This document shows, one piece after another, positions 1 through 11,465 of a DNA stretch of 11,465 nt. Within the stretch, counting starts at the first letter, position 1. Every line of letters begins with the position of its first letter. The position numbers and the translations under genes were made by a program. The notes below the pieces were generated by a model that worked only from the letters and a program-made list of their open reading frames with translations, did no database searches and was not told where the DNA came from. Source of the stretch: a virus; UHGV virus genome UHGV-0140594; one strand, written 5' to 3'.

Positions 1-1023
1 TCGCAATGGGATGGATGTACGCCGCAGGATACCCAGCGCTATTTATGCGGCGTATGGGCAAAAGCACGCGCAGCGATCTCGCGTGCGGGTATTCATGTAT
101 TTGGGTTTCGGGTTGTTGAGCCTCACCATGACGGGACACCGCACTGGCATATGTTGCTTTTTATGCGTCCGCATGACGTGGACACGGTACGCGATATTCT
201 TTGCTATCACGCCAGAATTACCGATTCTGAAGAACTGCAATCTGAAAAGGCGCTGAAGGCGCGTTTTCATGTTGAAGCTATCGATCCCGCCAAAGGTTCG
301 GCCACGGGCTACATCGCGAAATACATTTCAAAAAATATTGATGGTTTTGCGCTGGATGGTGAGCATGACGAAGAAACCGGCGAAAACCTGCGTGATATGG
401 CTAAGTCCGTTTCTGCATGGGCTTCACGCTGGCGTATTCGTCAGTTTCAGCAGATTGGTGGTGCGCCGGTAACTGTCTGGCGTGAGCTGCGTCGGTTGCG
501 GGATCAGGTGCTGACCGATCGCAGAATGGATGCGGTTCTGGCCGCTGCTGATGTCGGGGACTGGGCTGCATATACCCAGGCGCAGGGCGGTGCACTGGTT
601 GCCCGCCGTGATCTGGTTGTTCGTCTGGCCTATGAAATTACGGAACAGGGCAACGAGTATGCAGAGGACGTGCAGCGCATACAGGGGGTTTATTCTCCTT
701 TGGTTCCTGATTCAGAAGTTTGCACCCGTCTGGTTAAGTGGCAAAAGGTTGCGAAGTTGGCCGAAGCGCCAGCGGAGGCGGGTTTTTCTGGCGGCAACGC
801 CGCCCCTTGGAGTTCTGTCAATAACTGTACGGAGGGGGGAACCCGCAGACGGTTAAAACTGGAATTACGCAGTCGGGGTTTTGATGGTTCTGATGAAGAA
901 ATAGCCATTCTCTTGCGGGGTAGTGGTTTGAGATTTGGTCAGGGCGCTCTGATTTACCGCAACGGGCGGCTTAAAGAGACTCAAAACGAGCCATTGCAGG
1001 AACTGTGGCCGGGGTGGTTATAG
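1..1023 (+). CDS. A: Rolling-circle replication initiator endonuclease (P2 gpA family), 5'-truncated by the window edge
   Basis: Frame 1 is open from nt 1 with no stop until TAG at 1021-1023; the ORF track entry 151..1023 is only the part after an internal ATG. Translation contains EPHHDGTPHWHMLLF (metal-binding motif of this initiator family) and GYIAKYISKN (paired catalytic tyrosines). Confidence 0.85.
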   Translation, partial: SQWDGCTPQDTQRYLCGVWAKARAAISRAGIHVFGFRVVEPHHDGTPHWHMLLFMRPHDVDTVRDILCYHARITDSEELQSEKALKARFHVEAIDPAKGSATGYIAKYISKNIDGFALDGEHDEETGENLRDMAKSVSAWASRWRIRQFQQIGGAPVTVWRELRRLRDQVLTDRRMDAVLAAADVGDWAAYTQAQGGALVARRDLVVRLAYEITEQGNEYAEDVQRIQGVYSPLVPDSEVCTRLVKWQKVAKLAEAPAEAGFSGGNAAPWSSVNNCTEGGTRRRLKLELRSRGFDGSDEEIAILLRGSGLRFGQGALIYRNGRLKETQNEPLQELWPGWL

Positions 1024-1100
1024 CGGTGTAATTATGTGAAAGGCATTCATTTGTCAGTAGATGGCAGGAAATTAAATTTCACAATTCGTGCTTTAAGGTG

Positions 1101-1120
1101 TACTGTATGTATATCCAGTT
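1101..1120 (+). promoter_or_regulatory. Candidate LexA (SOS) operator TACTGTATGTATATCCAGTT
   Basis: CTG-N10-CAG core with AT-rich spacer; 17 of 20 positions match the E. coli LexA consensus TACTGTATATATATACAGTA. It sits 22 bp upstream of the ATG at 1143 in an AT-rich 119-bp intergenic region. Confidence 0.55.
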
Positions 1121-1142
1121 ATTTATTGCTTGTGGGGGCTAA

Positions 1143-1349
1143 ATGGATCTTTTGGAGGCGTCGGCACAGCTGGAACGCATTGAGTTATTGGCCAAAATTG
1201 CCCATGTTTACGAAAGTAACCAGAGAGAAAAAACAATCGCTTTGGCCTGGATTGGAGAGCTTGCGGGAGAGGTTCGCGAAATAGTTAAAAAGGAAGGGCA
1301 ACGCCCCCAGAATGGGGGCATTTCAGGCGGCGGGAGTCGCTTTCAGTAG
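1143..1349 (+). CDS. Small hypothetical protein (68 aa) preceded by the SOS box; possible Tum-like antirepressor or moron (function unknown)
   Basis: ATG at 1143 with GGGGG Shine-Dalgarno 4 nt upstream (tgtgggggctaaATG). Predicted helical N-terminal part and Gly-rich tail (GGISGGGSRFQ). Its 3' end overlaps the 3' end of the convergent ogr-like gene by 27 nt. Confidence 0.45.
   Translation: MDLLEASAQLERIELLAKIAHVYESNQREKTIALAWIGELAGEVREIVKKEGQRPQNGGISGGGSRFQ
1303..1319. terminator. GC-rich hairpin GCCCCCA-GAA-TGGGGGC at the convergent gene ends (weak terminator candidate)
   Basis: Perfect 7-bp stem with 3-nt loop, immediately past the ogr-like stop on the minus strand. U-tracts are poor on both strands (AUUUC on plus; U5 lies 11 nt away on minus). 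Confidence 0.3.
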
Positions 1350-1592
1350 GTCTAATGCCATCTGGCGCTGATCGGGTGAAAGTGCATTCAGTATTTTTTG
1401 CACCATCGCATCACCCGTTTTAGCGCTGGGGCTGAGAGTGTGGGAGAACGTCAGATTCATAACAAACGTGTGGCCACACTCAACATCTGAACAGGCACAG
1501 TAAATATCGGCAATCTGCCGGTGCTTCCTGTTTGTTTTACGAATAACAGCCTTTGAGCCGCATTCCGGGCATTCGATTTTCAGAACTCGCAT
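1323..1592 (-). CDS. ogr: Ogr/Delta/B-family zinc-finger late-gene transcription activator
   Basis: MRVLKIECPECG...CACSDVEC gives C-x2-C-x22-C-x4-C, the zinc-finger spacing of P2 Ogr / 186 B / P4 Delta. ATG at 1592 has GGAG 8 nt upstream. The ORF track extends it to an ATG at 1646 that overlaps the portal stop (ATGA); 1592 is preferred because the family places the first Cys within about 8 residues of the N-terminus. Confidence 0.8.
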   Translation of the reverse strand: MRVLKIECPECGSKAVIRKTNRKHRQIADIYCACSDVECGHTFVMNLTFSHTLSPSAKTGDAMVQKILNALSPDQRQMALDLLKATPAA

Positions 1593-1642
1593 ATTCCATG
1601 CTCCAGCTGTTAAATGATGCCTGGATTTTAGCCTCTTTCGCC

Positions 1643-2704
1643 TCATGCCGCACCCTTATCCGTTGATTCTGTGTAACTTAAATCAAAGTTAAGGTGTAGC
1701 CTTTCCGGTATTTCAGGATCGTTGTTAACGGCCAGCATGAAACGGCGCTGGATGGGGGCAATTTCGCTTTTCTTGTAAATGCGTTCAGCCTTTTCAACAT
1801 CCCCCAGTCCGGCAGTGTTCTGCGGGCCAATACCGGCGAGGCCGGCAGGGAAACGGTGCGCGTTCAGAATGTCCTGGGCGCTGATGTTTTTGATGTTGGC
1901 AAATTCATCCTTCGCGGAAATATCCCCCATTTCAATGAATTTGATGGCGTCGCCGTCTCCACCGGGAATGTTTACAAGGATGGTGGAGAAGTTACCGATC
2001 CCTTTGCTGTCACGCAGCTGCTGTTCAATTTCTTCCTCCATTTCGTCCGTCATGCTGGGATCGCGAGTATAAAGAATACCGCCTGTGTGCGCACCGTTGT
2101 GGTAATAGCGGCGTCGGAAAATGACCGCTTCACTGTTAAGTAACGCGGAATGCACACCGCCGATGTAGTCCGGCAGTCCGTAGATATGCTGTTGTGGGTC
2201 ATACATTTTGATGAAGATAATATCTTCTTCTGGCCATACCTGCGGTTCTCCTTCCTGTAACACCACGTAGTCACCGGGCTTATCCAGGGCGTTATCTCTG
2301 ACTTTGCGGCGGCGAATATACAGACCGGGCAAGGGTTCAAGTGCGATCACGTCGCCCCAGCCGTTACGAATTTTGGCAATCGCAATATCCCCAAAGGTTA
2401 TATAGTCAAACGCTGCCGCTTCCAGCTGGTCGTGAATAAGCCCGCCCCCCAGGTAGTCTGAAACAATCATGTTTTTGCGGGCGTGAATGATGCCGCCGTG
2501 CTGACCGTTAAGATTAATCAGCTGTGCGAGTGCCAGCCGGTCAATCGGCTGGGTGAAGTGATCGGCGGCATTGTCGTACCAGATATCACGGTAATCTGTG
2601 CCGGTAGTCAGAACCGGTTCAGGTTTGCCGAATGTGATAATGCTCATCTTTTTTGATTTGTCGCCGCGCTGGTCGCGCTTAACAAAGCGTTTCTTTTTAC
2701 TCAT
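1643..2704 (-). CDS. Q: Portal protein (P2 gpQ-like)
   Basis: 353 aa, directly downstream of the terminase ATPase gene on the same strand with an ATGA stop/start overlap at 2701-2704; AAGGAAAGAGG ribosome-binding site upstream. Size and position match P2 Q; sequence similarity is recalled, not computed. Confidence 0.8.
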   Translation of the reverse strand: MSKKKRFVKRDQRGDKSKKMSIITFGKPEPVLTTGTDYRDIWYDNAADHFTQPIDRLALAQLINLNGQHGGIIHARKNMIVSDYLGGGLIHDQLEAAAFDYITFGDIAIAKIRNGWGDVIALEPLPGLYIRRRKVRDNALDKPGDYVVLQEGEPQVWPEEDIIFIKMYDPQQHIYGLPDYIGGVHSALLNSEAVIFRRRYYHNGAHTGGILYTRDPSMTDEMEEEIEQQLRDSKGIGNFSTILVNIPGGDGDAIKFIEMGDISAKDEFANIKNISAQDILNAHRFPAGLAGIGPQNTAGLGDVEKAERIYKKSEIAPIQRRFMLAVNNDPEIPERLHLNFDLSYTESTDKGAA

Positions 2705-4239
2705 GCTGCCTCTTTCCTTACACCCCAGCGGGATTTAGGTTTGTTTTCATAGTTAAGGGGTTCGTTATGCAGACCGTGGGTAATCGCCCAGAACGCCTCC
2801 GCGTGGCCAGTATCCTGGCTGCGGTCAGCGACAAACGTCATGGCGTTGCCGCTTTGTGTGGTGGTTCGGCGCACAGACATAAAGCTGGCCGCGATCTCTT
2901 TCAGGTTTTTATCCCACTCAATACGTTGGCTTTCCACCACGTCCACCGCTTTCAGCACCAGTTGATTTTTGGTGTTCAGGTCGTAACGAATAGGGACGGC
3001 CACGCGCATGGCAAAATGCTGAATGTTGTCAAAAACACCCTGGCCAATGCCGGTAACGTCTACTCCCAGATAAGTGAAGTTGTATTTTTTGAACAACTGC
3101 TCGATCTGTTTTGCCTGATACCGGAAGTTCATGCCTTTCCAGTAAATCACCTTCAGAACGCGGAACTTCTCCACGGCGAGCATCGGCGGGGCGATGATGA
3201 CAAAACAAGACAAATCACCGCTGCGAGCCGGGTCAAAGCCGCCCCAAACTGGCCTGTCACCGAATGGCCGCGCTGCATCAGGGTTGTGATCCTGCCAGGT
3301 GTCGATTTCAACGCCGCAGGCTTCCAGGTCAGAAAAGCTGAAAACGGAATCTTTGCTGTCAACGAACACGCACATATAGAGCATGTTAAAAGTGGCGTCG
3401 TTGTAGCGGTTGCGAAGTTTCTCGATGTTCGCCAGGTTGAAACCGCCCGCAATGGCATCTTCCATCGTAATGACGTAGCGCCATTGCCCATCCGGGCAGA
3501 GTCGCCCGCCGTCACGCATGTCGTTAAAGGACGGAAACTTAATGGCCGCACGTTTTTTACTGCCCTGTTTCCACTCATCGCCCGTCCAGAACGGGTAAGC
3601 CTGGTGCGTTTTTGCCGATGGCGTTGAAAAATAGGTGGTGCGCCACTTGTCATGTGTGGCCATTGCGCTGGCCACTTCGTTAAGTTTTGCAAAGTTTGGC
3701 ACCCAGAAATATTCGTCACAGTACAGGTGGCCACTGTAGGACTGGGCGGTGTTTTTGTTGGTGGAGAGAAAACGCAGTTCTGCGCCGTTGCTTAAGCGGA
3801 TCGGGTTGCCGGTTAGCGTAATACCGAAATACTGCTCTGCAATATTCACGATGTAAGACCGGAACACTTCAGCCTGTGCCTTTGACGCTGACAGAAAGAT
3901 TTGCGGATCGCCGGTCATCACCGCGTTTTCAAACGCTTCAAACGCAAAATACCAGGTCGCACCGATCTGGCGGCTTTTCAGGATGTTCCTGACAAGCTGG
4001 CCAATGTTATTGCGCAGGTGTTTCTGATATTCAAAAAGATGTTCTTCAGCCCATGCGTCAAAGTCCTCCTGCGTCAGCGACGTAATATCGTTTTTCTTGT
4101 ATTTCCGTTTGCTGCGTGATTCGTCGTCATTGTTGTCCCGCGCAGCTGCTTGCCCGGAACTCTGACCGCTGGCCATTTTCTCTTTGTGTTTATTACTCTG
4201 CGCACGCAGTTTCGTGGCATGAGCAATGAGCATGTCCAT
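2701..4239 (-). CDS. P: Terminase large (ATPase) subunit, gpP-like, main body; N-terminal domain is encoded upstream in another frame
   Basis: 512-aa ORF with a Walker-A-like KSRQIGAT motif and acidic motifs typical of terminase ATPase/nuclease; P2-like position upstream of the portal gene. Its reading frame stays open upstream of the annotated Met to 4281. Confidence 0.85.
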   Translation of the reverse strand: MDMLIAHATKLRAQSNKHKEKMASGQSSGQAAARDNNDDESRSKRKYKKNDITSLTQEDFDAWAEEHLFEYQKHLRNNIGQLVRNILKSRQIGATWYFAFEAFENAVMTGDPQIFLSASKAQAEVFRSYIVNIAEQYFGITLTGNPIRLSNGAELRFLSTNKNTAQSYSGHLYCDEYFWVPNFAKLNEVASAMATHDKWRTTYFSTPSAKTHQAYPFWTGDEWKQGSKKRAAIKFPSFNDMRDGGRLCPDGQWRYVITMEDAIAGGFNLANIEKLRNRYNDATFNMLYMCVFVDSKDSVFSFSDLEACGVEIDTWQDHNPDAARPFGDRPVWGGFDPARSGDLSCFVIIAPPMLAVEKFRVLKVIYWKGMNFRYQAKQIEQLFKKYNFTYLGVDVTGIGQGVFDNIQHFAMRVAVPIRYDLNTKNQLVLKAVDVVESQRIEWDKNLKEIAASFMSVRRTTTQSGNAMTFVADRSQDTGHAEAFWAITHGLHNEPLNYENKPKSRWGVRKEAA

Positions 4240-4244
4240 TTCTT

Positions 4245-4439
4245 TCAGGTCGAGATCGGTTTTGTTATCGCGGCTGTGCTTTCAAAACTGAGCAAATCCG
4301 CCCAGCTGTATTTCTCCGCCCAGTAGTAAACGATCCGCGCATTCGGCAGATTTAATTCAGATGCGATTTCCTTTGGCGTATAGCGGCGCAGATAAAGTGC
4401 GCGAACAACGCCTTTTAATTCTTCAGAGTATTTAGCCAT
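4245..4439 (-). CDS. P: Terminase large subunit N-terminal helix-turn-helix segment (gpP N-terminal-like), in a different frame from the ATPase body
   Basis: 64-aa ORF ...VVRALYLRRYTPKEIASELNLPNARIVYYWAEKYSW... resembles the N-terminal DNA-binding domain of gpP-type terminases. It ends at TGA 4245-4247, only 5 nt before the Met of the 512-aa ORF, and the two frames overlap open across 4248-4281. Confidence 0.6.
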   Translation of the reverse strand: MAKYSEELKGVVRALYLRRYTPKEIASELNLPNARIVYYWAEKYSWADLLSFESTAAITKPIST

Positions 4440-4493
4440 GCGGATAATTATGCCGTGGCTGTGATGAAAAAACGGTGGTGTTAATTCGTGTCT

Positions 4494-4518
4494 GTTCGGT
4501 AAAGCGTTATAACCGAAC
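4494..4518. promoter_or_regulatory. Perfect inverted repeat GTTCGGT-N11-ACCGAAC in the divergent late promoter region; candidate activator binding site
   Basis: 7-bp perfect dyad centred near 4506 in the 161-bp gap between the leftward terminase-portal operon and the rightward scaffold-capsid operon, roughly 55 bp from plausible -10 elements on either side. The P2-type TGT-N12-ACA motif itself is absent. Confidence 0.4.
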
Positions 4519-4600
4519 TGTTCAGAATAAAGCGTAATGCGGTGGTGGTTTTATTTGGCAATAATTGGTTTGCAGCGTCAGGGAGTGGAACAGGGGGGAT

Positions 4601-5404
4601 ATGTCACATTTAAAAACTGACTGGCTGTGTGTTGCTACTGAAGGGGATACCGTTGATGGCAGGGTAATTAAACGGCAGTGGATCATTGATATGGGGGAAA
4701 CCTATGACTATAGCCACTATGTCGCTTTAATCTGGCCAGAACATGAGGATGATTGCGGGAATTTTGGTGAAGTGCTGGAAGCCACCTGGAATGATGGTGA
4801 AGATGGACTGGCACGGTTATATGTCAGCCTTTGCCCGAATATGCGTCTGATTTTCGCAAATCATGAAGATCAGCTTTTGTTCTTCTCCATTGAGCCGGAA
4901 GAAAACTGGCGCGGTAGCGGGCGTACTTACCTGAAAGGGCTGGCGGTAACAGATACACCTGCCAGCGTTGGCACCACACGGCTGCGCTTTAGTAGTCGGC
5001 GCAATAAATTAACAAAGCAGGGATATTACAGCTGTGTAATTTCCCGCGACGGAAAAATTAAACAGGAAGCAAGAATGAAGAACTGGCAGAAACTGTTTGG
5101 TATTAAGCCAAAGTTTGAAGATGAAACGCCGCAGGATAATCCTGCTCCGGATGAAGATAAATTACAGGCGCTTGCCAATGTGGTGAACGATCTGGAAGCG
5201 CGAGTGGCGAAAATTGAAACTCAACTGAATGACGTTCAGGGTGATGTTGACACAATTGCTGAAGTGGTGGATACGCAGGAATTTGCGGCAATTCGCGGTA
5301 ATGCAAAAGAAATCGTAACCCGCTTTAACGAACTGGGTAATAAAAACACCCGTACACCGGGGCGTACTATAAAAGATAAAGCCGGGAAATTTAATTTCCT
5401 GTAA
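4601..5404 (+). CDS. O: Capsid scaffolding protein (P2 gpO-like)
   Basis: EGDTVDGRVI and YLKGLAVTDTPAS correspond to conserved gpO motifs. ATG at 4601 is preceded by AGGGGGG; the ORF track start at 4565 is a TTG with no better ribosome-binding site. Confidence 0.85.
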   Translation: MSHLKTDWLCVATEGDTVDGRVIKRQWIIDMGETYDYSHYVALIWPEHEDDCGNFGEVLEATWNDGEDGLARLYVSLCPNMRLIFANHEDQLLFFSIEPEENWRGSGRTYLKGLAVTDTPASVGTTRLRFSSRRNKLTKQGYYSCVISRDGKIKQEARMKNWQKLFGIKPKFEDETPQDNPAPDEDKLQALANVVNDLEARVAKIETQLNDVQGDVDTIAEVVDTQEFAAIRGNAKEIVTRFNELGNKNTRTPGRTIKDKAGKFNFL

Positions 5405-5466
5405 TTCGCTTTATTGCTAATTAGCCCAGAATATATTTTTAAATCGCTTAATTGCGAGGGAGTTTT

Positions 5467-6489
5467 ATGCACCTTAATAATCGTGCGCGGGATTTACTGG
5501 ATAAATATTCGGCGGGGATGGCGCAGCAGTTTGGTGCGCGTGATACCAGTCGATATTTTTCCCTGAATGACCCGCAGGAAAATGCGCTGCGTCTTGCGTT
5601 GCTGGAGTCCGTCGAGTTCCTGAACATGATCACCTGTCTGGATGTTGACCAGCTGAGTGGCCAGGTGATCTCTGTCGGTTCCTCTGTGCTGCATACCGGC
5701 CGCAGCGAAAATGGCCGTTTCATTCGTCAGGTAGGCGTTGACGGTAATGACTATTCCCTGGTTGAAACAGACAGCTGTGCCGCGTTGCGCTGGGATCTGC
5801 TTTCTGTCTGGGCAAACGCCGGTAAGGACGAAAACGAGTTTTACAACCTGGTACAGGCATTCACCACGCAGGCTTTTGCGCTGGATATGTTGCGCATTGG
5901 TTTTAACGGTAAAAGTCGCGCGAAAACCACTGATCCGGAAACTAACCCGAACGGCGAGGATGTGAACGTTGGCTGGCATGAGCGTATGAAAACGCTGCTG
6001 GGCGGCAATCAGATTATGACGGATGCCGTGGTGCTTGATGAGGCCGGGGATTACAAATCACTGGATGCAATGGCGTCCGATCTGATTAACGCCAAAATCC
6101 CGGCACAGTTCCGCAATGATCCGCGTCTGGTTGTTCTGGTTGGTGCCGATCTGGTCGCAGCTGAACAATACCGACTGTATCAGGCAGCAGACCGTCCGAC
6201 TGAAAAAATCGCGGCGCAGATGCTGGGAAGCACCATTGCCGGCCGTCCGGCTATTATCCCGCCGTTTATGCCGGGTAAACGCATGGTGGTTACGCCGCTT
6301 TCTAACCTGCACATCTACACCCAGCGCAATACCCGTATGCGTAAGGCGGAGTTTGTTGAAGATCGTAAGCAGTTCGAAAACAAATACCTGCGCAATGAAG
6401 GTTACGCGGTGGAAGTGCCGGAGCTGTATGCGGCTATTGATGAATCCGCTGTGACAATCGGCAAAGTCTCCGAACCGGTGGAGGGTTGA
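5467..6489 (+). CDS. N: Major capsid protein (P2 gpN-like)
   Basis: Motifs FNGKSRAKTTD, VGWHERMK, GDYKSLDAM and DPRLVVLVG parallel P2 gpN. ATG at 5467 has a GAGGGAG ribosome-binding site; the ORF track start at 5452 is a TTG. Confidence 0.9.
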   Translation: MHLNNRARDLLDKYSAGMAQQFGARDTSRYFSLNDPQENALRLALLESVEFLNMITCLDVDQLSGQVISVGSSVLHTGRSENGRFIRQVGVDGNDYSLVETDSCAALRWDLLSVWANAGKDENEFYNLVQAFTTQAFALDMLRIGFNGKSRAKTTDPETNPNGEDVNVGWHERMKTLLGGNQIMTDAVVLDEAGDYKSLDAMASDLINAKIPAQFRNDPRLVVLVGADLVAAEQYRLYQAADRPTEKIAAQMLGSTIAGRPAIIPPFMPGKRMVVTPLSNLHIYTQRNTRMRKAEFVEDRKQFENKYLRNEGYAVEVPELYAAIDESAVTIGKVSEPVEG

Positions 6490-6492
6490 TAA

Positions 6493-7194
6493 ATGGCACT
6501 TTCCCCCGCGCAGCGTCACAGCCAGCGTATTGCGATGGAACAAAAGCTGAAGCGCAGCCAGGCACTGGAAACCACGGAAAGTATGCACTTGCTGGTCAGG
6601 GCGCTGGAAACGGATGTGGAATATATTCGAAGTCTGCCTACCATCGCCGATCGCGTCGAGTACAAACGCAATGTGCTGTTGCCGCGCTGGGTTCCCACTG
6701 TGGAAGCCTATCTGGAGAGTGGCCAGGAGTATGCAAATCCGGTTTTTGCCTGGTGTGTTATCTGGCTGTTTGACGTGGGCGATCTGGATAAGGCGCTGGA
6801 CTGGGCTGACATTGCTATCAGCCAGCAGCAGGCAACCCCGGATCGGTTACGCAGCAATTTTCCCACTTTCGTGGCGGATACGATGCTGGCATGGGCGCAG
6901 GAAACCGCAGGGCGCGGGGAAAGTGTGGAGCCTTATTTCACCCGCACGTTTGAGCGGGTGGCAAACACCTGGCGACTGCATGAGCAGGTGACGGCCAAAT
7001 GGTTCAAGTTTGCCGGTCAGGAGTTGCTACGCAATGACGATGGCCAGAAAACGGCGGCGGGCGTGGATGATATTGAAACGCTGGAAAAAGCCGATCAGCT
7101 GCTGGCTATTGCAGAAAAACACTACTCAAAAATTGGCGTCAGAACGGCGCGGCAGACAATTGCCGCCCGTATCCGAAAACTGACTCAAGGGTAA
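6493..7194 (+). CDS. M: Terminase small (endonuclease) subunit, P2 gpM-like
   Basis: N-terminal SPAQRH and LLPRWVPTV / WLFDVGDLDKALDWA blocks resemble gpM; GGAGGG ribosome-binding site 8 nt upstream; sits in the P2 position after the capsid gene. Confidence 0.8.
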   Translation: MALSPAQRHSQRIAMEQKLKRSQALETTESMHLLVRALETDVEYIRSLPTIADRVEYKRNVLLPRWVPTVEAYLESGQEYANPVFAWCVIWLFDVGDLDKALDWADIAISQQQATPDRLRSNFPTFVADTMLAWAQETAGRGESVEPYFTRTFERVANTWRLHEQVTAKWFKFAGQELLRNDDGQKTAAGVDDIETLEKADQLLAIAEKHYSKIGVRTARQTIAARIRKLTQG

Positions 7195-7239
7195 AGACTA
7201 CCGCAAGCCAGGCGGACGCGGTGGAGGGCAGAACACCTT

Positions 7240-7743
7240 GTGTGTAACTGCGCCGTGGAAACCGGCCAGTCCGCCTTTTTCGGGGGATTTATGTTTAGCG
7301 GAAAGCCGCTGGATTATCAGGATGAACCGCTGACCAATAACGGATTCTGGCCAGATCTGAATCTGAAGGATTTTCAAGCGCAGCGGTCACTACCGCCAGA
7401 TATTGACGCTGACACCATCAGCCAGGCGTTGCTTGCAGCGGTGGCGGAGGTGAATGCGGAACTGGAAAACGTGGAGTCCAGTTGGATAGCGAAAGGCTAC
7501 ACGCTGGCGGCAGAGGTACCAGGTGTAAAAATGGGCGGACTGAACAGCCTGTGCGCCCAGTATATGAAGGCCGTTTTTGCTAGGGCAAAAGCGGATCTGC
7601 TGGGGGAGTTCGCCACTATCGGGCGGCGCGATACTCATCCGGGACAGGAAAGTATGGAAACCCGAGCGGGGTTACTGGCTGAAGCATCGGTGGTGATCCG
7701 CCGTATGAAAGGGCTGAAACGGGCAACGGTGAAAAAAGTATGA
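7240..7743 (+). CDS. L: Head completion/stabilisation protein (P2 gpL-like)
   Basis: Position after the small terminase gene; size about 167 aa; F-W-P-D-L and NAELENV blocks. Start is uncertain: GTG at 7240 (GGAGGG 11 nt upstream) or ATG at 7291 (GGGGGA upstream). Confidence 0.65.
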   Translation: MCNCAVETGQSAFFGGFMFSGKPLDYQDEPLTNNGFWPDLNLKDFQAQRSLPPDIDADTISQALLAAVAEVNAELENVESSWIAKGYTLAAEVPGVKMGGLNSLCAQYMKAVFARAKADLLGEFATIGRRDTHPGQESMETRAGLLAEASVVIRRMKGLKRATVKKV

Positions 7744-8246
7744 GCCAGACGCAGATCCAAAGCCTGACCACATTTTTTAAAGATAACGTCCCGCCCCGTG
7801 CGATGCAGTCATTTGACAGTGTGCTGGATGAGATGAAGTTCATCCCTGCGGCGAAGGATTACGGGCTGGGACAATATCGCCAGGCGGTTATCCGATATGA
7901 CGCGGTTCTGAGCTGGGAGCGTTTCCCGTATCGCCTTTGCCCGCCGCAGTTGCTTATGTCCTTACTGGCTGCGTGGCTGGATGATGCTGACAGGGAACTA
8001 CTGGATGAAGTGGGGCTGAGTGAAGCTGAACCTGACTGGGATGTGTCGGTGGAGGATGAGGAAGTGGCCACTGTGGTGCTGACTGTTCCGATGGTAGAAG
8101 AACTGGTGATCAGGCAGGACGAAAACGGGGCTATTCCGTGGCGGGGTGAGCGCTGGTCACTGGTTGAGCCTGAAATCTGGACGGCACTGACCGCCAGTAT
8201 TTACAGCGTGGATGAGGCCGGTGCGCCGGTGGGGGATAGCGAATGA
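7740..8246 (+). CDS. Hypothetical acidic virion protein (168 aa); possible tail-completion (gpR-like) or head-tail joining protein
   Basis: ATGA overlap with the upstream stop suggests translational coupling; strongly acidic; position between head completion and the morphogenesis gene. The functional assignment is positional only. Confidence 0.5.
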   Translation: MSQTQIQSLTTFFKDNVPPRAMQSFDSVLDEMKFIPAAKDYGLGQYRQAVIRYDAVLSWERFPYRLCPPQLLMSLLAAWLDDADRELLDEVGLSEAEPDWDVSVEDEEVATVVLTVPMVEELVIRQDENGAIPWRGERWSLVEPEIWTALTASIYSVDEAGAPVGDSE

Positions 8247-8950
8247 TTGCCGGTGGCGAGCTGAATAAAAAACAGCTGGCCGAATTGCGCAAGGCACTGG
8301 CCAGCATGGAGCTGCCGCCGAGAAAACGGCAGCGTCTGATCTGGCGTCTGGCCAAATATGGCGTGATTGCTGCGGCAAAGCGGCATGTGCGCAATCAGGA
8401 ATCCCCGGATGGCCAGAAGTGGCCGGGACGTAAGACAAAACGCAAAGGGAAGATGCTGCGCAACCTGCCAAAGCTGCTGCATATCCGTGAAATGCCAGAA
8501 ATTCAGGCTGTGCGGATCTATTTACAGGGCGGTGGATACCGGAACGGGGAAGCGCCGGTACCAGCCGGAACGGTGGGGTACGCGCAACAAAACGGAATGC
8601 GCGTAAAGGTCAGCCGCAGTAATCAGCCACGGAAGGCAGAGGCCGGGAAAATGGCGACGCCTGCCCAGGCCAAAAAATTACGGGCGCTGGGGTACCGGGT
8701 GAAAACCGGTAAGAGATGGAAAAAGCCCACACAGGGCGAAATCACCAAAACGATGCCATACAGCCAGGCGGGGCTGCTGATTCGAAAACTCAGTAATAAA
8801 GCCGTGAAAACCAGCAGGACAGTGGATCTTCCTGCTCGTGTGTTTCTGGGCATGAATGATGATGAATTTGACAAGGCGCTGGCGCGTCAGCTTCAGGCCA
8901 TAGGTTTTGGCTGGGATGTTAAGGCGCAGGATATTAAGGGGAAAGCATGA
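8243..8950 (+). CDS. Phage virion morphogenesis protein (P2 gpS / Mu G family) with an extra basic internal segment
   Basis: Contains the family-typical QESPDGQKW and ARVFLGMNDDE blocks; ATGA overlap upstream and GGGGGA ribosome-binding site. At 235 aa it is about 80 aa longer than typical members, the extra part being Lys/Arg-rich. Confidence 0.65.
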   Translation: MIAGGELNKKQLAELRKALASMELPPRKRQRLIWRLAKYGVIAAAKRHVRNQESPDGQKWPGRKTKRKGKMLRNLPKLLHIREMPEIQAVRIYLQGGGYRNGEAPVPAGTVGYAQQNGMRVKVSRSNQPRKAEAGKMATPAQAKKLRALGYRVKTGKRWKKPTQGEITKTMPYSQAGLLIRKLSNKAVKTSRTVDLPARVFLGMNDDEFDKALARQLQAIGFGWDVKAQDIKGKA

Positions 8951-10074
8951 CCTGGCCAATTGTGACGGTAAACCAGGTAAACCAGCTGATGGGCGAAACC
9001 AATGAGGTGGAACGCACACTGCTGTTTATCGGTACGGGTACCAAAAATGTGGGGAAAACGCTGGCGGTGAATGCCCAGAGTGATTTTGATTCACTGCTGG
9101 GCGAGGAAGCCAGCCCGCTCAAAAATGATGTTCTGGCTGCGCTGGCGAACGCTGGCCAGAACTGGTGGGGGTTCATTCACGTTCTGCCAGCTGACGCGGA
9201 GGCAGATGCCTGGGTGAAAGCGGTTCTGGCCGCGCAGGTGGTGTGCTCTGTGGAAGGCGTGGTGCTGTCTGACGATGTGACCGCTAAAGCGCAGGTAAAT
9301 CAGGCCGTGACGTTACGATCCACCCTGATTTCAAAGTATGGCCGCTGGGTGTGGTTTATCCTGGCCGCGCAGGGAATGCAGGACGAAGAAGCCCAGGCGG
9401 ATTATCTGGTACGCATGGCCACCCTTCAGGATGGCATTGCAGAAAAGGCAGTGCAGCTGGTTCCCCGCCTGTGGGGAAATGAACCGGGCGTGCTGGCTGG
9501 TCGCCTTTGTAGCCGTGCGGTAACCATTGCTGACAGTCCGGCGCGGGTTAAAACCGGTGCTCTGATGAATCTGGGCAGTGATGAGATGCCGGTTGATGGT
9601 ACCGGAGAAGTGCTGGAACTGGCCACACTTCAGGCGCTTGAAGCACAGCGTTTCAGTGTGCCGATGTGGTATCCGGATTATGACGGTTTTTACTGGGCAG
9701 ATGGCCGCACGCTGGATGTTGAGGGCGGCGATTATCAGTCGATTGAAACCCTGCGCGTTGCGGATAAAGCTGCCCGCCGTGTTCGTCTGCTGGCTATCAG
9801 CAAAATCGCGGATCGCTCGCTGAACAGCACGCCGGGAAGTATCGCCGCACATCAGACATTGTTTGCCCGTCCATTGCGTGAAATGTCCACTGCGGCCAGC
9901 ATTAACGGTGTGTCATTTCCGGGTGAAGTGAAGCCGCCGCAGGATGGTGATGTGACCATTGTCTGGAAAAACAAAAAGGCGGTGGATATTTACATTGTGG
10001 TGCGCACCTGGGAAGTGCCGCTGCAAATCACCATCAGTCTGTTACTGGATGCGAGTCTGGAGGCCACAGCATGA
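8947..10074 (+). CDS. Structural protein of unknown family (375 aa); tail sheath-like candidate
   Basis: ATGA-coupled to the upstream gene, AAGGGGAAAG ribosome-binding site. The N-terminal beta-rich segment and the internal RLWGNEPG block resemble the WGxRT region of contractile sheath proteins. It is followed by a tube-sized protein. No P2 counterpart at this position. Confidence 0.4.
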   Translation: MTWPIVTVNQVNQLMGETNEVERTLLFIGTGTKNVGKTLAVNAQSDFDSLLGEEASPLKNDVLAALANAGQNWWGFIHVLPADAEADAWVKAVLAAQVVCSVEGVVLSDDVTAKAQVNQAVTLRSTLISKYGRWVWFILAAQGMQDEEAQADYLVRMATLQDGIAEKAVQLVPRLWGNEPGVLAGRLCSRAVTIADSPARVKTGALMNLGSDEMPVDGTGEVLELATLQALEAQRFSVPMWYPDYDGFYWADGRTLDVEGGDYQSIETLRVADKAARRVRLLAISKIADRSLNSTPGSIAAHQTLFARPLREMSTAASINGVSFPGEVKPPQDGDVTIVWKNKKAVDIYIVVRTWEVPLQITISLLLDASLEATA

Positions 10075-10526
10075 CCAAACGTATTTCGGGTATGTCGTTT
10101 GACACCTATATGGACGGCGATCTGATCCATATCGAGAAAATCACGCTCGATATTACGGATAACAGCGCTGCCGCCCAGACGCGTGGCGTCCCTGATGGGT
10201 ATGTGGATGGCGATGTTGCCGCTGAGGGGGAAATTGAAGTCAGTTCAAAAACACTTCAGGTGCTGACAGCCAAAGCCCGTGCAGCGGGTTCATTGCGTGG
10301 GCTTCCACCACTTGATTTTCTTTTCTATGCCAAAGCCAGTAGCGAAGAAATGAAGGTGGAGACGTTCGGCAATAAATTGCAGGTCAGCAACCTGCTGGAT
10401 ATTGATCCGAAAGGTGGCGGTGTGACCACGCACAAAATCAAATATTTCGTGACCAGTCCGAAATTCGTCAACATCAACGGTGTGCCGTATCTGGAAGCGG
10501 AAGCCACAGAAAACTTGATCGGATAA
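10071..10526 (+). CDS. Structural protein of unknown family (151 aa); tail tube-like candidate
   Basis: ATGA-coupled to the 375-aa gene, GGAGG ribosome-binding site; size and position are consistent with a tube protein partnered to a sheath. No diagnostic motif recognised. Confidence 0.3.
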   Translation: MTKRISGMSFDTYMDGDLIHIEKITLDITDNSAAAQTRGVPDGYVDGDVAAEGEIEVSSKTLQVLTAKARAAGSLRGLPPLDFLFYAKASSEEMKVETFGNKLQVSNLLDIDPKGGGVTTHKIKYFVTSPKFVNINGVPYLEAEATENLIG

Positions 10527-10535
10527 GGGGCAGGG

Positions 10536-10838
10536 ATGCAGGAACATGAAAAGAGCCTTTATTCACTGCTGATCATTGGCGCACTGATTGCCATCGGCAA
10601 TGTGCTGACCAGTAATGACCCAATCACGCCGCGCCTGTTTGCCGGTCGCGTGATCCTGGGCAGTCTGGTTTCAGTGGTGGCCGGGGCGGTACTAATTCAG
10701 ATCCCGGATGCCAGCCCGCTGGCCATTCAGGGGCTGGGGGCGGCGCTGGGGATTGCCGGTTATCAGGCGGTGGAAGTGTGGCTGCGCAGACGTGCAGCGG
10801 GAAAGCAGAACGGGAGCAAGACAAATGACCCTGAGTGA
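10536..10838 (+). CDS. Holin (three predicted transmembrane helices, charged C-terminus)
   Basis: 100 aa; hydrophobic stretches LYSLLIIGALIAIGNVL, GRVILGSLVSVVAGAVLI and LAIQGLGAALGIAGYQAV followed by a basic/polar tail (RRRAAGKQNGSK); lies immediately upstream of and overlapping the endolysin gene. Confidence 0.6.
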   Translation: MQEHEKSLYSLLIIGALIAIGNVLTSNDPITPRLFAGRVILGSLVSVVAGAVLIQIPDASPLAIQGLGAALGIAGYQAVEVWLRRRAAGKQNGSKTNDPE

Positions 10839-11166
10839 AAAACAGCAATTATTCACAGTCATGGTGGCCAGTCTGATCCACTGGGCAGAAGAACATGGCT
10901 ACAGACTGACGTTCGGTGAGGCTTACCGTACACCAGAACAGGCCGCGCTGAATGCGAAGAAAGGCAGCGGTATTTCTAACAGCCTGCACACCCAGCGGCT
11001 GGCGGTGGATTTCAATCTGTTCGTGAACGGTCAGTACAAAACCCGCACAGAAGATTATCTGCCACTGGGGGAATACTGGGAATCACTGGGTGGTGCCTGG
11101 GGCGGACGCTTTAAATCCAGACCGGATGGCAATCATTTCAGTCTGGAACATAACGGGGTGCGCTGA
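10825..11166 (+). CDS. Endolysin, peptidase M15 family (VanY / L-alanyl-D-glutamate peptidase-like)
   Basis: SLHTQRLAVDF ... GGAWGGRF ... DGNHFSLE matches the zinc-ligand H-x6-D ... H pattern and WGG block of small phage M15 peptidases. ATG at 10825 has a GGGAG ribosome-binding site; the longer ORF-track start at 10708 overlaps the holin and is rejected. Confidence 0.85.
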   Translation: MTLSEKQQLFTVMVASLIHWAEEHGYRLTFGEAYRTPEQAALNAKKGSGISNSLHTQRLAVDFNLFVNGQYKTRTEDYLPLGEYWESLGGAWGGRFKSRPDGNHFSLEHNGVR

Positions 11167-11465
11167 TGAGCAGCGGGCAGTGGCTGGTTGTGGTGGCGCT
11201 GGCGTTTGTCTGGGGCTGGCTAACCGCTGACTGGCGGCGTGATAGCTTAGAGCTGGCAATCAATACAGCGGCGCAGGTGGCCGGTAATGAATCGCGAAAA
11301 GCAATGCAGGGTATTGCCAGTGATTCGGCCAGAGCGCTGGAAGATAAACTGGAGGCGTTAAAAAATGTGGCACCGCGAGAGATACGCACGGAAATACTTA
11401 AGCCCGTTTTTACTAAGGAAGGTGCGAATAAGCAGGTCATTTCTTCCCAAGCTGACTCGCTGATT
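11166..11465 (+). CDS. Putative i-spanin (Rz-like), 3'-truncated by the window edge
   Basis: ATG at 11166 overlaps the endolysin stop (TGATG). N-terminal transmembrane segment WLVVVALAFVWGWL followed by a charged helical region; open to the window end. Not in the ORF track because no stop is reached. Confidence 0.45.
   Translation, partial: MSSGQWLVVVALAFVWGWLTADWRRDSLELAINTAAQVAGNESRKAMQGIASDSARALEDKLEALKNVAPREIRTEILKPVFTKEGANKQVISSQADSLI

Follow-up and report, generated by a model that had tools for sequence, protein, structure and literature searches.

A predicted HP1-type tail sheath and tube gene pair in an ESSI-2-like prophage of Escherichia coli

Introduction

Which proteins are encoded by two genes that lie between the tail completion genes and the lysis cassette of a prophage with P2-family head genes, and how does the tail they point to relate to that of P2? 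The window analyzed here is the 11,465-nucleotide stretch of virus genome UHGV-0140594, and its gene order departs from that of P2. The initial annotation quoted the latter correctly, as judged from the P2 record: L-X-lysis-R-S, then V-W-J-I-H-G, with FI and FII (sheath and tube) leading an F operon of their own that follows the baseplate and fiber genes. The lysis genes are thus between X and R in P2, but directly 3' of the putative tube gene in the window. The initial annotation proposed that the two genes encode a sheath and a tube of unrecognized family, belonging to a “non-P2 tail module” in a hybrid virion.

Peduoviridae have been divided by their tail proteins into HP1 and P2 subgroups (PMC10612066, Viruses 2023;15:2061), the sheath and tube proteins of the two being joined only through HHpred, at about 13% identity (PMC10612066). 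The evidence set out below makes it very probable, in large part through predicted structures, that the pair are the contractile sheath and inner tube of a temperate HP1-subgroup Peduoviridae myovirus, carried as an ESSI-2-like E. coli prophage.

The gene pair and its neighborhood

Both ORFs have exactly the coordinates and sizes first assigned to them (Table 1), and Pfam and PHROG matches bear out the neighbors originally described, a gpS-like gene before the pair and lysis genes after it. They are real genes under purifying selection rather than chance ORFs: dN/dS for the sheath and tube genes is 0.02–0.14 in comparison with three related phages, over which dS reaches 0.9–1.9, and both products match family HMMs over their full length (451 and 210 bits). 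The sheath start overlaps the gpS-like stop, and the tube start the sheath stop, in both cases as ATGA; the gpS-like gene is translationally coupled to the sheath gene. Purine-rich, Shine-Dalgarno-like stretches are found 5' of the sheath and tube starts (GGGGAAAG and GGAGG, respectively).

Table 1. Features of the sheath/tube region, in window coordinates.
Feature	Position	Strand	Family or remark
gpL-like gene	7240–7743	+	upstream neighbor
gpR-like tail terminator/tail completion gene, 168 aa	7740–8246	+	P2_Phage_GpR, E 9e-23; PHROG 65 “tail terminator,” E 4e-32
gpS-like tail completion/Neck1 protein gene, 235 aa	8243–8950	+	PHROG 26, E 3e-32; Pfam Phage_tail_S
Predicted tail sheath gene, 375 aa, ATG start	8947–10074	+	HP1 orf23 type; Pfam DUF2586; PHROG 907 “tail sheath”
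RLWGNEPG block, residues 174–181 of the 375-aa protein	9466–9489	+	within the most conserved stretch of DUF2586
Predicted tail tube gene, 151 aa, ATG start	10071–10526	+	HP1 orf24 type; Pfam Phage_HP1_Orf24 (ex-DUF2597); PHROG 1182
Holin gene, 100 aa, first of the lysis cassette, 3' of the tube gene	10536–10838	+	Phage_holin_3_2, E 6e-39; PHROG 175
M15-family peptidase endolysin gene	10825–11166	+	Peptidase_M15_4, E 3e-10; PHROG endolysin families
Rz-like spanin gene, 5' part, IS-interrupted	11166–11416	+	intact homolog L002:30203–30541 = PHROG 1152, E 2e-34

The endolysin start in Table 1 is that of the RefSeq CDS of an identical prophage (L002:29862–30203) mapped to the window; the longest ORF starts at 10708. 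ORFs run on the same strand from 4565 to the window end, and 5' of the gpL-like gene are P2-family scaffold, capsid, and small terminase genes. Head and neck matches to P2 families in Pfam comprise Phage_cap_P2, Phage_GPO, Phage_term_smal, Phage_GPL, and P2_Phage_GpR, the capsid protein scoring 332 bits. The match of the gpS-like protein to Phage_tail_S is exactly at the cut-off (24.3 bits vs. 24.3) and covers residues 14–75 only. In intact relatives, the lysis cassette is followed by Rz/Rz1-like spanins and then, in a part that lies beyond the window, by a Phage_TAC_10 tail assembly chaperone with DUF6890, the tape measure protein, DUF2590, Baseplate_J, Tail_P2_I, fiber, and fiber-assembly genes, and HP1_ORF34. 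The tape-measure and baseplate genes for which a downstream inspection had been suggested are therefore present in these relatives, together with the chaperone.

Protein families and predicted folds

Neither protein belongs to an “unrecognized family,” as was first supposed: both fall in curated Pfam and PHROG families, and the records of related phages already read tail sheath and tail tube. The suggestion that they might correspond to a DUF2586/DUF2597-type pair was well founded. The 375-aa protein matches Pfam DUF2586 (PF10758) at 450.9 bits (cut-off 26.4, E 5.4e-135) over residues 3–369 and profile positions 1–385 of 386, and DUF2586 is also matched by all 49 of its diverse relatives that were compared; the 151-aa protein matches Phage_HP1_Orf24 (PF10772, formerly DUF2597) at 209.8 bits (cut-off 25, E 1.7e-62) over residues 8–141 and the whole profile (1–134 of 134). 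The PHROG labels are “tail sheath” and “tail protein,” respectively, while homologs of the smaller protein are named “DUF2597 family protein” by NCBI; no NCBIfam model was found for either. Other database names for these genes are uninformative (“Protein of unknown function” in Pfam, “DUF2586 domain-containing protein” and “phage protein” in RefSeq), and in one entry a homolog is mislabeled “topoisomerase IA.”

The RLWGNEPG block that had been singled out as sheath-like is indeed present in the 375-aa protein. Around it, no substitution of P173, G185, R186, or L187 occurs among 73 sequences, and P173, G181, G185, R186, and L187 are conserved columns of the DUF2586 family. No sequence link was found, however, between the protein bearing this block and the canonical sheath families: a Pfam scan at E ≤ 10 gave no match to Phage_sheath_1/1C in 49 DUF2586 representatives. 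Likewise, the only Pfam family matched by the tube protein is Phage_HP1_Orf24, with no match to the P2 gpFII family (Phage_tube). Searches of solved structures in the PDB with both proteins (phmmer and profile hmmsearch) returned chance matches only (E ≥ 0.19, e.g., eL24 and FGF1), so the folds were examined through predicted models.

On these models, the 375-aa protein folds as a contractile sheath, with the conserved core of the contractile tail sheath superfamily, and the 151-aa protein as a tail tube, with the β-sandwich, one helix, and long hairpin of the tail tube/Hcp superfamily. The structure-prediction check proposed by the initial annotation thus returned the two folds it had anticipated. 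In the model of the sheath monomer, residues 1–19 have pLDDT <50 and are disordered, and confidence is low for the last residues; a disordered N-terminal arm and a low-confidence C-terminus are consistent with arms that would be exchanged between subunits. The 375-aa sheath of ESSI-2 itself was classed as a one-domain sheath in an AlphaFold survey of sheath proteins (PMC9230969).

Could the pair instead have a role outside the tail, for instance as a decoration protein, as an enzyme, or as a head-tail accessory, and simply happen to be encoded in the late operon? The uninformative Pfam and RefSeq names and the “topoisomerase IA” entry might be taken in this sense, but at high rank the confident models are matched by no folds other than those of sheath and tube proteins, the tail module, which is otherwise complete in these phages, offers no other sheath or tube candidate, and the phages are myoviruses; a non-tail role is accordingly extremely improbable, and an enzyme or decoration protein can be dismissed on the fold results. 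The sheath and tube roles first proposed are supported wherever they could be checked.

A literature search for DUF2586 by name and for HP1 orf23/orf24 found nothing relevant, and no virion proteomics or mutant data for the pair were found in the literature examined. PV94, an HP1-group phage, has a contractile tail by electron microscopy; mass spectrometry in the PV94 study detected its capsid, tape measure, and baseplate proteins, but neither the sheath nor the tube.

Likeness to HP1 and the closest phages

Close counterparts of the pair are orf23 and orf24 of Haemophilus phage HP1 (Hpunavirus, Peduoviridae), with 52 and 59% amino-acid identity, respectively, over the full length, membership in the same Pfam families (DUF2586 and Phage_HP1_Orf24), and sizes of 376 and 150 aa. 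The gene order of HP1 matches gene for gene: Q-P, O-N-M-orf20(L)-orf21(R)-orf22(S)-orf23-orf24-hol-lys-Rz. After Rz, orf26–orf35 are the remaining tail genes of HP1, including fiber, fiber-assembly, and baseplate genes, in the sequence tape measure-baseplate-fiber as in the relatives of the window phage. The two differ in host, Enterobacteriaceae for the window phage and Pasteurellaceae for HP1; the endolysin of the window is an M15 peptidase. The combination that characterizes the HP1 subgroup is found here: P2-family head and neck genes with HP1-type sheath, tube, and HP1_ORF34, in HP1 order.

Positions 1–11416 of the window match, at ~99.9–100% identity, an element of 28 kb that lies in E. 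coli 1919D3 between mntS and mntR; among 5426 complete E. coli genomes, 27 carry this prophage with coverage of 80% or more of the window. Over the sheath/tube region (8947–10526), nucleotide identity is 97.4% to ESSI2_ev040 (Quadragintavirus), 83.2% to ev239 (Evevirus), and 76.2% to Cronobacter phage ESSI-2 (Seongnamvirus). All three have the same ORF lengths and are annotated with tail sheath and tail tube in their records. By sequence, Escherichia phage ESSI2_ev040 is the closest named relative. The closest phages are classified in Peduoviridae, and Seongnamvirus (ESSI-2) is placed in the HP1 group of that family in Table 2 of PMC10612066. ESSI-2 is a myovirus, and ESSI2-like coliphages are plaque formers isolated from infant viromes (PMC6969025).

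Proposed expression and assembly

Overlapping stop and start codons, together with the lack of a convincing terminator, suggest that the sheath and tube genes and their neighbors are co-expressed as one late unit, although the terminator part of this argument is weak: a promoter/terminator scan of 4200–11465 gave counts at or below shuffle expectation, and from the scaffold gene onward it showed no convincing terminator on the plus strand, a result no better than chance. From established knowledge of contractile tails, we infer the following operon structure, assembly, and contraction. A single late operon would run scaffold-capsid-small terminase-L-R-S-sheath-tube-holin-endolysin-spanin-chaperone-tape measure-baseplate-fibers; with one long late operon in HP1 order, structural and lysis proteins would be made together late in infection. 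Tube hexamers would be stacked on the baseplate, with the tape measure protein at their center. Sheath subunits would polymerize into a helical array that surrounds the tube and is held together through exchange of their N- and C-terminal arms, and the tail would be capped and completed by the gpR- and gpS-like proteins. Triggering of the baseplate would then lead to sheath contraction, driving the tube through the cell envelope.

A damaged copy of the prophage

Two lesions distinguish the window from its relatives. The first is a loss of 37 bp at 4276/4277 (gccagcagctggtaacggcgttcaattgcttcctctg, flanked by ctg microhomology), which shifts the frame of the large terminase gene (591 aa) and splits it into ORFs 4245–4439 and 2701–4239; the missing bases are present in all of the 28 complete E. 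coli genomes with the prophage and in phage ev040. The second is at the window end, where prophage homology stops at 11416 and the last 49 bases (11417–11465) are the end of an IS5-like element of the ISKpn26 family, with inverted repeat GGAAGGTGCGAATAAG and target CTAA, inserted in the Rz-like spanin gene. Both the terminase frameshift and the IS insertion are absent from the ESSI2_ev040, ev239, and ESSI-2 genomes.

This prophage copy therefore looks defective, to judge from its sequence, and its sheath and tube may never have been assembled into infectious virions in the host that carried it. Are the two genes, then, relics that are decaying or at most serve tail-only particles? The odds appear evenly balanced. 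In favor are the frameshifting deletion, unique among the prophage carriers compared, and the ISKpn26-family end that interrupts the spanin gene at 11417. Against this, faulty assembly could account for the 37-bp deletion, the window takes in only 49 bases of the IS and stops short of the rest of the tail module, and the sheath gene is 100% identical to that of an apparently intact prophage, with a single base different in the tube gene. The lesions are therefore recent and uninformative on gene identity, and the assignment of the pair as sheath and tube of an HP1-subgroup phage is the same for an intact or a damaged copy.

History of the tail module

If the function of the pair is little in doubt, the main competing explanations concern the history of the tail: an older, swapped-in module or a fast-diverged ortholog. 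The P2 gpFI/gpFII and R2 pyocin sheath and tube proteins (PDB 3j9q) showed no detectable sequence or profile similarity to the window proteins (hhalign probabilities 0.1–0.15), and structure-based identity to them is 12%. Specifically, the DUF2586 profile gave a probability of 0.14 against P2 FI and 0.15 against a nine-sequence FI profile, and a 66-sequence tube profile gave 0.08 against P2 FII, all without secondary-structure scoring and with an FI profile that is shallow and built from phage records. The HHpred link of HP1-type sheath and tube to P2 reported in PMC10612066 was thus not reproduced with hhalign.

At the level of sequence, the contrast between the head and the tail is real: the lack of detectable similarity to P2 FI and FII, despite P2-family head genes, fits a P2-like head joined to a tail module of far deeper divergence. 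Published timetrees put the sheath split in the range of 2.5–3 Gya, far deeper than the portal split at ~1.5 Gya, and the proposed explanation is that a far older paralog of the tail module was taken up by one of the clades (PMC10612066).

Another possibility is that the pair are simply orthologs of P2 FI and FII which diverged unusually fast under vertical inheritance, with no exchange of modules, in which case “hybrid virion” would be a misnomer. HP1-type and P2 phages do share one family, Peduoviridae; the proteins resembling R, S, J, and I retain matches to Pfam families named after P2, although the S- and I-like proteins do so only at about the curated cut-off (20.4 bits vs. 20.6 for the I-like protein); and HHpred usually pairs tail proteins of the HP1 and P2 subgroups with each other before those of other myoviruses (PMC10612066). 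Simple divergence would, however, have to leave strong P2-family HMM matches in the head (332 bits for the capsid) while removing any profile match of sheath and tube to FI and FII, and to account for the failure of all 49 DUF2586 members to match Phage_sheath_1/1C even at E ≤ 10. It is also at odds with the published dating, in which the far greater depth of the sheath split was read as acquisition of an older module (PMC10612066). On balance, simple divergence seems unlikely.

The broader claims made at the outset hold in part. “Non-P2 tail module” is a question of degree: the sheath and tube have no detectable similarity to FI and FII, but proteins of the R, S, J, and I types match P2-named families. 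Nor is the hybrid a new observation, since the architecture is the standard, already published one of the HP1 subgroup.

Implications

Both the sheath/tube pair and the pattern of a P2 head with an older tail module are already known, so that the functional assignment is correct but ordinary. A more adventurous interpretation would be that the HP1-type pair represents an independent, structurally uncharacterized lineage of minimal contractile tails, and that the prophage studied here is in addition turning into a tail-only, tailocin-like element. The possibility of different subunit contacts or geometry arises from the lack of a detectable solved structure and of a profile link to P2 FI, and that of a tailocin-like route from the loss of terminase and spanin function. 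Neither part gained positive support from the analysis, and the combination is very improbable; were the lineage independent, its subunits might touch one another, or its tail contract, in ways unlike the P2/pyocin paradigm.

For the more conventional reading preferred here, a sheath and tube of the HP1 type, two consequences can be named. The HP1-type tail, with no solved structure that can be detected by sequence or profile, is a gap beside the structures available for P2 and pyocin. The practical value lies in annotation: the fold evidence would justify renaming the DUF2586 and “phage protein” labels under which these sheath and tube proteins now appear.

Prophage Location and Interrupted Genes

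A prophage identical to the window lies in the Escherichia coli 1919D3 genome record (L002:13318-41000), where it is inserted between mntS and mntR, with a serine acetyltransferase gene, possibly prophage cargo, adjoining mntR directly past the last phage-like gene. The prophage is rare: among the 5426 complete E. coli genomes, 27 contain it with at least 80% of the window covered.

Two genes of the window are interrupted. The large terminase, 591 aa in relatives, is frameshifted by the absence of 37 bp that are present in all 28 complete E. coli genomes with the prophage and in phage ESSI2_ev040, leaving two ORFs; this could be either a genuine inactivating lesion or an assembly error. At the end of the window, the Rz-like spanin gene (start at 11166) is broken by the first 49 bases of an insertion sequence, a stretch that recurs at 4833 sites across 1866 E. 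coli genomes.

Coordinates and characteristics of selected features of the window
Feature	Position	Strand	Length	Remarks
Ogr/Delta-like zinc-finger late activator gene	1323-1646	minus		Between replication gene and portal gene
Split large terminase ORFs	2701-4239, 4245-4439	minus		37-bp deletion at 4276/4277
gpS-like protein gene	8243-8950		235 aa	Pfam Phage_tail_S; PHROG 26
IS5-like ISKpn26-family insertion sequence, partial	11417-11465			Inverted repeat GGAAGGTGCGAATAAG; target CTAA at 11413-11416

Late Activator and Tail Genes

The location of the Ogr/Delta-like gene agrees with that reported for its counterpart in Vibrio phage K139, unlike the arrangement in P2, where ogr is placed after gene D. 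The gpS-like protein is longer than its P2 namesake (150 aa). Its Pfam match covers residues 14-75 only, with a score exactly at the cut-off; PHROG 26 (tail completion/Neck1) spans the entire protein, and the RefSeq name is “hypothetical protein.”

Some peculiarities of annotation were seen among homologues of the 375-aa DUF2586 sheath protein (P0037, P0242, P0252, and P0255): the one from Kluyvera georgiana is labelled “topoisomerase IA,” and in a few DUF2586 representatives the domain forms the C-terminal part of a far larger protein (507, 485, and 1088 aa), an arrangement that could reflect either true fusion or a fusion created by gene calling.
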